Below, one piece after another: positions 19,644-63,367 of a DNA stretch of 64,000 nt; position 1 is the stretch's first letter, and every line of letters begins with the position of its first letter. The notes below the pieces were generated by a model. It was not told the DNA's origin, ran no database searches, and saw nothing but the letters and a program-made list of their open reading frames with translations. The DNA lies in the NCBI GenBank assembly GCA_965216785.1, contig OZ244197.1, forward strand, positions 2,496,001-2,560,000. Reading direction: 5' to 3'. The stretch is from Thermodesulfobacteriota bacterium (lineage in GTDB: Bacteria; Desulfobacterota_D; UBA1144; Nemesobacterales; UBA2774). The position numbers were made by a program, and so were the translations under genes.

Positions 19644-19803
19644 AGAATGGGGACAGAGGCGATCCTTCGACGAGCTCAGGATGAGCGGGATGAAATGACG
19701 AAATAGGGACGGACCGGAGGGCGAAGCCCGATCGGGGGGAGTAAAATTAAGAACGGGGACAGAGGCGAGTGCTTCACAGCGATGCCAGGGAGGCTAAAAT
19801 TAA
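19644..19803 (+). repeat. Modular intergenic repeat cluster, copy 1 (modules C1-C2-D)
   Basis: GGGGACAGAGGC...TAAAATTAA units; 19651-19764 matches the reverse complement of 27377-27489 with 3 differences. Confidence 0.9.
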
Positions 19804-23655: not shown

Positions 23656-23794
23656 TTTAATACCCCCTTTGCAGATATATAAAACAAGAATTACATAATA
23701 TTTGGGTGAATGCAAAAGTTAAGAAGATAATTGGCAGATTCTCACAAACAATACCAAAATATAGGGTTGGTTCTTGCTTCGCTAACTATTTTCA

Positions 23795-23831
23795 CCCCCA
23801 TCCTAACCTTCCCCCGTCAAGGGGGAAGGAA
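23795..23831. repeat. Palindromic REP-like element CCCCCATCCTAACCTTCCCCC-GTCAA-GGGGGAAGGAA
   Basis: Perfect 9-bp stem at 23807-23829 with a CCCCCATCCTAA leader. Confidence 0.65.
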
Positions 23832-23847
23832 GTATAAGAGAAAGGAT

Positions 23848-26494: not shown

Positions 26495-27294
26495 GCTATT
26501 CCGTTTCGCATTGAGAACTTCACAAGATCGACCAGGTTATGAATTTCGAGCTTTTTCATGATGTTGGCCCTGTGGGTCTCGACCGTCTTTACGCTTTAAG
26601 ACAGCTCCTCGGCAATACCCGAATTACTCAAACCGCTCGTAATTAACACGAGCAACCTCTGCTCCTTGGCGCTAAGCGTGTTGTACCGATCGTGCTCTTT
26701 ATCAAAGTCTTTAATAATGGTATCCGGCGCCAGATACATCGGGCTTTCGTAAACAAAGTTGTTTTCCACCACTGTCGGGTGTGTTTTCATGATCGAAATT
26801 AGATCCTGGGAGCTTATTTTATTTACAGGATACTGGTTCATCATTATTAGAGATTTCTCCATACATAGCTTGTTTAAAAATGCTTTCTTCCAAAGCCTCT
26901 CTTTATTGCTCAGGAAATAAAATAAATAGCTGTACATCACAAGCACCCTCACTGGGCTCCGTCCCTTCTCTAGTACTTTATCAAGACTAATCCTGAGATT
27001 AGAGACAATAGTGCTCGCTCTTTTATTCTCTTTTACAGAGTTTTTGATAATTATTTCTTCATAGGCCTTCGCACTCCCGTTTTCAGTACGTATTACACCG
27101 TTTCCTTCAAGCCTTGAGATAAGCTCTAGGGGCGCACGACGGTCGGATATAACAACACAAGTCAATTTACACTTGATAGAGTGTGCAAGAAACTTGGCGG
27201 CTATCTCGTAACACTCTGTATCGTTGTAATACAGATGACATAAGTGCTCATGTGCTTTAAGCGTGGGTAAGTACTGGAATATTGACTGTTGCAT
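26491..27294 (-). pseudogene. MEDS-like sensor plus LuxR HTH regulator, interrupted by an in-frame TAA
   Basis: HEHLCHLY (MEDS-like). The frame continues past TAA 26596-26598 as SVKTVETHRANIMKKLEIHNLVDLVKFSMRNGIA to TAG 26491-26493. Confidence 0.8.
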
Positions 27295-27296
27295 GT

Positions 27297-27636
27297 TTAA
27301 TTTATTCCCAGGCATCGCTCGTTCTAATTTTATTCCTGCTCTCGCTCACACGCCTCGTTCACTCGCGGTCCCCAGTCTCTGTCCCCATTCTTAATTTTAC
27401 TCCCCCGATCGGGCTTCGCCCTCCGGTCCGTCCCCATTTCGTCATTTCATCCCGCTCATCCTGAGCTCGTCGAAGGATCGCCTCTGTCCATTTATTTTAT
27501 CCTACGGGCATCGCTCCAAAGCGCTCGCCTCTGTCCATTTATTTTATTCCCGCCCCGGCATCGCTTGTTCTAATTTTATTCCAGCTCTCGCTCACACACT
27601 TCGTTCACTCGCAGCCCCCAGCCTCTGTCCCCATTA
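27297..27636 (-). repeat. Modular intergenic repeat array, copy 2 (7 units)
   Basis: Repeated TAATTTTA(T/C)...GCCTCTGTCC(CC)AT units on the + strand; internal duplication 27311-27388 vs 27557-27634. Confidence 0.9.
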
Positions 27637-28178
27637 CATCTTATCAATCGTATCTTTAATAATCAGAGCGGCGTTATGGATAGAGTCAATCCTTCGCAGC
27701 ACCTCGGCATCGTCTCCGGGCGCCCCTTCCTCGAGGAATAATTCGGTACTCCCGATAATTGCGGCAAGGGCATTTTCCGTCTCCTCAATCAGCTTCCTCT
27801 GAGTTCTGTGTTTATGGAGCGCAATCTCGATTGTCGTATAAAGATCCGTTTCTTGAAACGGTTTTAATATGTAACCGTAAGGATTTGTGGTCTTTGCCCT
27901 CTTAAGGGTCTTTTCATTCGAATAAGCCGTAAGGAATATGACGGGGATGTTATAAAGCGCGCTCGTATAACCTTAGCAGCCTCGGTGCCGTCCATCTTAC
28001 CCTCCAGCATAATGTCCATTAGAACAATTTCAGGCTCAGTGCGCTCCGAAAGCTCAATCGCCTCCTCAGCCGAGCGAGCGATACCCGTTACCGAATATCC
28101 AAGGTTTTGAAGTGTTTCCTCAATATCCTTTGCGACTATAATTTCGTCTTCCACTACAAGTACTTTGATCATTTTCAT
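27634..28178 (-). pseudogene. Response regulator (REC domain plus helical tail), frameshifted
   Basis: VLVVEDE..LMDIML..DG in frame 1. After about 27954 another frame gives YNIPVIFLTAYS..YGYILKPF...KM to TAA 27634-27636. Confidence 0.85.
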
Positions 28179-62973: not shown

Positions 62974-63183
62974 ATGGAACAGAAAAATACTGAAGAGGCA
63001 CTTACGCTGGATACATATATTAAAGGCGTAAAAGACCAAGAGATAAAGGGCATACTGCTTAAGCTCAAGAACGAAATACGTAGAACGGACGCTGACAAGA
63101 ACACAATTGAAGCAGTTATTGCCTCATTAAAAGATAAAAACATCACCATAGCCGAGGAAGTGCTAAACTTAATCCAGGACTAA
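62974..63183 (+). CDS. Small hypothetical helical protein
   Basis: 69-aa ORF divergent from PBP1A, upstream of cysK. Confidence 0.55.
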   Translation: MEQKNTEEALTLDTYIKGVKDQEIKGILLKLKNEIRRTDADKNTIEAVIASLKDKNITIAEEVLNLIQD

Positions 63184-63310
63184 TGTGGACAGAGGCGAGC
63201 GTCTTTGCGCGATGCCGGGGATTAAAATTGGCTACAGAGGCTGGGGGCAGCGAGCGAACGTACTGCGTGAGCGAGAGCAGGATAAAATCAACCGTGCAGC
63301 TGTGCCGGGG
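63182..63310 (+). repeat. Modular intergenic repeat cluster, copy 3 (D, B and a degenerate E module)
   Basis: GGACAGAGGCGAGCG..GCGATGCC..TAAAATT, then ACAGAGGCTGGGGGC..GTGAGCGAGAGCAGGATAAAAT. Confidence 0.85.
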
Positions 63311-63367
63311 CTATATTACCGGCAGGCAATCAACGGCACATAGTACTATTCTTAGGAATACAAAATT

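Follow-up and report, generated by a model that had tools for sequence, protein, structure and literature searches.

Between two minus-strand genes, at positions 27298 to 27634 of the 64,000-nucleotide stretch of Thermodesulfobacteriota DNA analysed here (the window), lies a compact array of short modules, several of them repeated, and the question is what kind of element it represents and how it came to be there. A first-pass annotation, made from the letters alone, described seven head-cargo-tail units and proposed either a system in which an enzyme captures independent cargos at a fixed junction or a processed multi-unit RNA. We found that the array belongs to a family of head-to-tail intergenic hairpin repeats restricted to one uncultured bacterial genus, which likely acts as single-stranded DNA and likely spreads as a non-autonomous element similar to REP and BIME repeats, a reading to which we give a probability of roughly 0.6.

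Layout of the array and extent of the family

The modules B-E-D-C1-C2-B-E named in the first-pass annotation were borne out in both sequence and order, and the whole array, on the minus strand throughout, read as head-B-tail-E-tail, head-D-tail, head-C1-linker, C2 with its own head and tail, and head-B-tail-E-tail. The A of the first head (ATGGGGACAGAGGC, 27621 to 27634) doubles as the final base of the TAA stop codon of the upstream gene. It is followed by the first B module (27584 to 27620), which has its own sub-head TGGGGGC and for which covariation predicts a hairpin with 2-bp stems separated by GA/GA tandems. A tail (GGAATAAAATTA, 27571 to 27582) leads to the first E (27557 to 27570), which has no head and corresponds to the 3' half of the D hairpin. 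The head with D (27507 to 27538) is the basic unit of the family, and the head with C1 (27454 to 27491) contains what appears to be a CGTC/Ssn-type repeat half-site placed after the head's GGC-GA. C2 with its head (TGGGGACGG, 27407 to 27437) is predicted to form an outer 3-bp stem, a GA/GAT internal loop, a 4-bp stem and a C-GAA-G triloop, and the array closes with the second head and B module (27338 to 27388) and with a tail, the second E and the last tail (27298 to 27336). The seven units originally described were thus not confirmed as such: we counted five heads and seven tails, both E units lacked a head, and the C1 tail (GGATGAAATGA) deviated from the tail consensus given in that description. 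The head motif GGACAGAGGC, with at most one mismatch, was observed 11 times in the window compared to 3.56 expected, and none of 100 shuffles reached 11.

The last tail stops 3 bases short of the likely start codon (27294) of the downstream MEDS-domain gene (26596 to 27294, minus strand), while the upstream gene encodes a response regulator (27634 to 28178, minus strand) that is frameshifted near 27951 in the source strain. Overlapping short-read contigs from run X1 tiled the array with one 1-base insertion and run X5, from a second strain, gave an identical module order, so that the array is not an assembly artefact; the support from both runs consists of overlapping pieces, no single contig spanning the whole array. 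Two extra bases in the response-regulator gene were present in run X1 and absent in runs X5, X8, X9, X16 and X18, and the frameshift is therefore strain-specific.

The recurrence of the same modules elsewhere in the window was also confirmed, with a C1-C2-D array at 19647 to 19803 and a D-B-E array, its E degenerate, at 63183 to 63318, both on the plus strand. The longest exact stretch shared by any two arrays of the genome (54 nt) was between the 19.6-kb and 27.4-kb arrays, which lie 7.6 kb apart. A genome-wide search for the repeat, as the first-pass annotation had suggested, returned about 40 dispersed arrays. A pattern scan found 43 clusters in the 3.12-Mb genome, one of them a likely chance match, and the head-D, head-B and B patterns gave none in a control scan of the reversed genome. 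A module parser found 41 arrays, or 40 after removal of one lone intragenic match, and these contained 101 modules (D 59, E 15, C2 15, B 10, C1 2).

An exact 17-mer of the family was observed in 3 of 41 related genomes, all of one genus, and the C2 and B patterns were observed in the same three genus members out of 120 genomes of the phylum. The relatives with the family carry the name Ca. Dadabacteria. Scanning one genome per prokaryote species gave 72 stretches (one locus occurring twice), all but four of them in two Ca. Dadabacteria MAGs; these four were lone matches without array context and were dropped from later counts. Metagenomes added 119 further stretches, and the pooled set of the source genome, 67 genome loci and these 119 metagenome loci comprised 248 distinct arrays. 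The C2 and B patterns had no matches in viruses or plasmids, viral contigs contained 58 single 15-mer matches (one per locus), and plasmids and phages gave weak matches of 27-32 nt only.

Module designs and hairpin structure

The basic unit consists of a head (TGGGGRCRG), a hairpin and a purine/AT-rich tail. D has the form head(9)-AGGC-GA-GC-8 nt-GC-GAT-GCC, and that of C2 is head(9)-NCCG-GA-NN-7 nt-NN-GAT-CGG (or CGG...CCG), such that both follow one register with the outer stem exchanged from GGC/GCC to CCG/CGG. B combines a shorter head with two stems of 2 bp set between GA tandems. Among 59 variants its inner pair was T-A in 35, C-G in 17 and T-G in 5, and B is likely a third form of the D/C2 hairpin design. 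E comprises the 3' half of D together with the loop end, and it was seen behind D in 4 of 174 cases versus 54 of 127 for B, C2 or C1 (p=2e-19). The order of modules is therefore partly fixed, since D and C2 share a register and E is a half of D that prefers to follow B, C2 or C1, and this does not fit the earlier suggestion of independent cargos captured at a fixed junction.

C1 stood directly behind a head in 20 of 24 cases. Its sequence took several forms, frequently GGC-GA-[insert ending GA]-GCG...GCGATGCC, in which it is lodged in D. Look-alikes of C1 were solitary at 5 places in the source genome and bracketed small GIY-YIG genes, in inverted orientation, in genomes G028 and G010 (L338, L339). 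Judged by this likeness, C1 appears to be a foreign half-site of an Ssn/CGTC-type repeat and the only foreign module. The set of modules thus reduces to a single native hairpin design, in what are likely three forms, plus a half-unit and a half-site of foreign origin. The first-pass annotation had likened C1, C2 and B to other REP-like families; the GIY-YIG-flanking look-alikes bear this out for C1. B may resemble plasmid primosome assembly sites.

Across the 248 arrays we observed 76 module orders and 23 of the 25 transitions among the five modules, in agreement with the earlier view of a dispersed, modular and re-ordered family. A partial grammar, head-D-(B or C2)-tail-E, recurred, and in many arrays no tail stood between D and an adjoining B or C2. 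The layout was strictly head-to-tail, with no inverted module within 150 bp in any of the 248 arrays. The 5' edge of first heads, (A)T|GGGG, was sharp: among 89 of them, A was present in 74%, T in 81% and the G positions in 97-100%. Internal heads, unlike first heads, were decayed. A loose likeness of the head to tRNA-Ser was seen; a tRNA origin was rejected, with no match to the 3' end of any of 45 tRNA genes.

In 16 aligned copies of C2, all 112 of 112 stem cells were paired, 19 of them with changes on both sides, and none of 500 shuffles matched this, while slid-register controls lowered the pairing to 22-52%. The C2 stems thus covary, as the first-pass annotation had proposed to check, and we take this as support rather than proof since the set is small and the copies are related and pattern-chosen with some letters fixed. 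In 52 of 53 copies the C2 loop was G-N-A with a C-G closing pair, and its middle base varied over all four letters, although only the first G of the loop was imposed by the search pattern. Mini-hairpins of the form GCGNAGC are very stable in DNA, and their RNA counterparts (a tetraloop form being the example given in the available text) are much less so (PMC13037366). The G-N-A triloop therefore points to DNA and not RNA, and the covariation in C2 names the strand and likewise suggests DNA over RNA. GA tandems and G-T pairs were confined to the head strand. The family likely acts as single-stranded DNA rather than RNA, and we found no support for a processed multi-unit RNA. ViennaRNA scored no module as more stable than its own shuffles, as DNA or as RNA (best z -1.78), and these poor scores may reflect an under-rating of sheared G-A pairs by the folding models. 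Rfam gave no match in the window at the gathering threshold, the best on the 27.4-kb array having E=2.6.

Gene context and turnover between relatives

A total of 36 of the 41 parsed arrays in the source genome were located outside genes predicted by a simple gene caller. The three arrays in the window are co-oriented with the downstream gene, which the first-pass annotation had stated as a rule; genome-wide the rule is wrong because 24 of 36 intergenic arrays follow the direction of the downstream gene (p=0.065). Among distinct sites between co-directional genes in the pooled set, 49 were sense and 18 antisense (p=2e-4), while the bias in the source genome alone was weak (15:9). The head began 0-4 nt past a stop codon at 26 of 73 sites, compared to the 5-13% expected. 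REPs within 15 nt of a stop codon are described as affecting translation (PMC12306157, citing Liang 2015, in the portion available), and known REPs include some whose ends lie against a stop codon or provide it (PMC3733652).

The neighbours of the arrays were ordinary genes, including those on both sides of the rpsS-rplV gap in genome G002. A conserved mini-ORF starting from the head ATG was rejected, the frame running into a stop within 18 codons in 59 of 153 cases, and insertion at start codons was also rejected. No replication-strand bias was observed by hand count, with 17 plus and 14 minus arrays in the stretch of positive GC skew (approximately 0.95-2.45 Mb). The array strand contained 37% G and 18% C, and Rho was present in all three genomes of the genus. 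Modules of the family were also present in contigs of metatranscriptome X18, where DNA carry-over is possible.

At long-lived sites, relatives differed by gain, loss and re-ordering of arrays. The 221 intergenic arrays corresponded to 128 distinct sites, of which 52 were filled in more than one source, and the order differed at 48 of these 52, although parser misses, gaps of N and contig ends may have raised this figure. Both orientations were observed at only one site. Sites were empty by pattern in 50 of 127 syntenic flank pairs, some of these being decayed copies. No long target duplication was seen among the filled/empty pairs listed, in which several of the 'empty' sites were remnants. 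The junctions yielded no clean rule for the target site, many of the empty ones resembling decayed or deleted copies; duplications of 1-3 bases are compatible with the data at 75-90% flank identity.

At the 27.4-kb site, a relative (L244) contained D-D at the same TAA|TGGGG junction, with members of other repeat families behind it, while the site in genus g3 (L176) had no array. A contig of run X16 with flanks approximately 95% identical bridged the site with about 36 other letters versus 236 in the source genome, and the strain comparison suggested earlier thus showed a much shorter array at the same site in a close relative. The 63.2-kb array was absent from the orthologous site in another relative (L255), and loci L156 and L225 differed by a head-to-head loss or gain. 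D loops were identical in 26 of 38 pairs within arrays versus 250 of 1673 pairs between arrays, which probably reflects slippage. Arrays less than 20 kb apart shared longer exact stretches (permutation p=0.017), and the arrays were clustered, with 20 of 39 gaps under 20 kb, a clustering reached by none of 5000 random sets. The spacers of L108, L111, L115, L143 and L244 mix the family with other repeat types. These are probably CGTC-type dimers, C-rich DUF559-type palindromes, 7-mer GATGCAG runs and GxxExxY-type 9-mers.

Known repeat systems, candidate enzymes and origin

The analogy to BIME and BOX mosaics drawn in the first-pass annotation was well chosen. REP/BIME and REPIN-RAYT repeats, like this family, are short intergenic hairpins with an unpaired 5' tag in tens of copies, lineage-restricted, clustered in mosaics and often beside stop codons, as described in the available texts (PMC3733652, 10.1101/279083, 10.1101/119735). 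In the broad sense the family is a BIME-like mosaic, being intergenic, multi-copy, strain-variable and built from a small set of re-used hairpin and linker modules. It differs from the GTAG REPs, which have a 5' GTAG/GTGG at the hairpin foot instead of TGGGGRCRG, occur mostly as inverted dimers and flank a RAYT gene that we observed in none of the three genus genomes. Head-tail dimers are rare in known REP families in the texts available (PMC3733652, PMC3049150), and a purely head-to-tail layout with GA-tandem/GNA hairpins is what sets the family apart from REP/BIME. The family seems to be undescribed, with no description in Rfam or in literature searches.

The motif GGGGWSAS is reported for repeats around TIRYT-type HUH genes (TnpA-Y1 subclass 2.1), whose TIR families are, like this one, moderately abundant and clustered in the texts available (PMC3733652, 10.1101/279083). 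First heads of the family read GGGGACAG and fit the motif, which with eight letters is weak alone. The match may be due to chance, because the TIRYT repeats are described as inverted around their Y1 gene and the family has no inverted arrays (nor was a Y1 gene seen in the genus); in addition, the family's internal heads decay and its hairpin modules come after the head. Repeats of Ssn GIY-YIG nucleases (CGTC REPs/NTS/SRM) are likewise described as inverted around the gene (PMC11893778, PMC3733652, in part), and only C1 resembles them, as a hairpin half-site flanking small GIY-YIG genes in inverted orientation, while head, D, B and C2 do not. The TIR and CGTC comparisons were made against text descriptions rather than the repeat sequences, and the membership of the head and C1 could shift accordingly. 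Neisseria arrays also interleave repeat families (PMC11893778, available text). The BOX elements of pneumococcus and S. suis are similarly species-restricted and modular, with a variable number of modules and no known enzyme of their own in the available text, but have a fixed A-Bn-C order, terminal inverted repeats and target duplications (PMC3049150); the family has a looser order and no inverted ends, and the terminal inverted repeats and target-site duplication of MITE and BOX elements were not observed in it. Unlike CRISPR arrays and integron cassettes, with unique spacers or cassettes at one locus and cas or integrase genes alongside, its modules are re-used at about 40 dispersed loci, as the first-pass annotation had noted for the spacers.

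An HUH/RAYT-type transposase encoded elsewhere had been proposed as the cognate enzyme, and none was found in the three genus genomes, which are incomplete (80-92% complete, the source genome being at 92%). Y1_Tnp was observed in none of the three versus 67 of 101 genomes in the order, many of the latter weak, and 30 Y1 loci from the order had no B, C2 or head-D module near the gene. A tblastn search with 29 ORFs from Y1 loci matched the source genome only through one unrelated neighbour ORF. REP_Tyr_transpos was over the cut-off in none of the three genomes, and a weak match (E 0.014) upstream of an array in G001 was rejected because its DNA is 83% conserved and syntenic in the source genome. 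Neither reverse transcriptase nor 23S_rRNA_IVP was observed in the three genomes. A 150-aa ORF 1.1 kb from an array (L222:5130-5582) resembled the start of a reverse transcriptase by eye; it had no Pfam match and occurs once. Other candidates were rejected, including a GxxExxY protein in one of the three genomes, bracketed by its own 9-mer repeats; the small GIY-YIG genes of G001 and G002, flanked by CGTC-type repeats or tRNA/tmRNA and not by the family's units; and DUF559 in two of the three genomes, of which the G002 copy adjoins a C2 unit yet carries its own C-rich repeats. No GIY-YIG gene was flanked by head, D, B or C2, and 20 tyrosine-recombinase loci of the genus contained no D, B or C2 module. 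Array-near ORFs without a homolog in the source genome (14 of 271, 32 of 436 and 12 more) included single IS481- and IS1595-type genes and nothing recurrent (16 proteins scanned and the rest judged by eye). The search for a nuclease, transposase or reverse transcriptase beside the arrays, also suggested at first pass, thus linked none to them in the three genomes searched.

The preferred reading of a non-autonomous REP/BIME-like element could operate in three steps. New sites would be seeded in trans, just 3' of an A/T-rich 'AT' in short spacers, by a hairpin-recognising single-strand DNA nuclease or transposase that is encoded elsewhere or has since been lost; a TIRYT-type HUH enzyme would be our first guess from the GGGGWSAS head and an Ssn-type GIY-YIG enzyme the second. 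At a filled site, units would then multiply by slippage, and recombination at the heads and tails that arrays share, and at short GC/GA microhomologies, would exchange them from array to array. This could account for the mosaic orders, for E as a half-unit and for C1 as a captured module. Selection would retain mostly the sense orientation inside operons, since the opposite strand would place a C-rich, G-poor stretch in the mRNA of a cell with Rho.

Spread without any enzyme, now and ever, through slippage, RecA-type or microhomology recombination and uptake of single-stranded DNA by natural transformation, with the hairpins as hot spots, is an unlikely alternative that draws on the lack of a cognate gene in the genus genomes searched, a ComEC-type gene in two of the three genomes, and the homogeneity within arrays, local sharing and L156/L225 difference described above. 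It has difficulty with seeding 128 sites with a sharp common 5' end without a site-specific step, and the conserved GA tandems and GNA loops on otherwise free stems suggest a protein that reads shape. Somewhat harder to accept is a kept RNA element, transcribed with the genes and acting on mRNA stability, on translation or as processed multi-unit RNAs. The 49:18 sense bias, the heads 0-4 nt past stop codons, the effect of stop-proximal REPs on translation reported in the available part of PMC12306157, tails resembling a ribosome-binding site and the modules in the X18 contigs (subject to DNA carry-over) are consistent with it; the triloop signature of DNA, the lack of an Rfam family, the turnover of content at sites often empty in relatives, the 18 of 67 co-directional sites that are antisense, the head ATG without a conserved mini-ORF and the precedent for stop-abutting REP ends (PMC3733652, in part) argue against it.

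The cassette system originally proposed, in which a dedicated enzyme would capture short independent cargos and reshuffle them where head and tail meet at a fixed junction, is improbable. The 23 of 25 transitions and a foreign C1 directly behind the head in more than one sequence form are what it would produce, but the 248 arrays share four core modules, three of one design, with no unique spacers, E is tied to B, C2 and C1, tail-less joins of D are frequent, and no enzyme, leader or single master locus was observed. That the arrays are deletion derivatives of one fixed-order MITE, which the first-pass annotation had named as one outcome that would overturn it, is very hard to sustain: the recurrent partial grammar is of this kind, but the 76 orders and 23 of 25 transitions include cycles, in which D and B, and likewise C and B, follow each other in either order, and we observed neither terminal inverted repeats (0 of 248) nor long target duplications among the filled/empty pairs listed.

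A more specific and doubtful possibility is that the units are distinct mobile single-stranded DNA micro-elements, head-tagged hairpins with tandem G-A pairs and GNA loops that would be moved as unit-length circles by an unrecognised enzyme, inserted 3' of AT and able to splice in half-sites of other families; regeneration of the target in the tail would make the arrays strictly head-to-tail. If true, this would extend the small nuclease-repeat pairs (RAYT-REP, Ssn-SRM) and imply a new shape-reading single-strand DNA enzyme. With this family, the enzyme behind orphan hairpin mosaics could be sought on defined substrates. Taken alone, it is a repeat confined to one lineage whose enzyme and function are hypothetical, and a specialist would find it neat but not very surprising.

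Several other elements were observed in these genomes. The source genome (G000) had no GIY-YIG match and no homolog of G001 uvrB/uvrC, while a GIY-YIG match was present in 23 of 25 related genomes; part of the G000 genome is therefore missing or lost, and the absence of uvrB/uvrC is either an assembly gap or a real loss of nucleotide excision repair. An excess of heads in G025 was dismissed as one unrelated 29-bp tandem repeat, a minisatellite of approximately 27 copies (L446:1500-2320) on a contig that looks eukaryotic by eye and is a possible contaminant. A second abundant repeat in G000, a symmetric A-tract/GGGAGCCGAAGCTCCC/T-tract hairpin, was terminator-like and present in approximately 26 copies, one of them near 23790-23840 of the window, with similar DNA in G004 and G002. 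Three dispersed and closely similar tyrosine recombinases of approximately 210 aa, consisting of the catalytic domain only (G000:C1 870977, 1163454 and 1289455; L410-L412), shared an A/T-rich upstream motif and low-GC surroundings. An integrated-element remnant with a phage-type repressor and a DnaD-like initiator (L425:11169-17457, corresponding to G000 2.159-2.165 Mb) was common to relatives and carries three arrays of the family.
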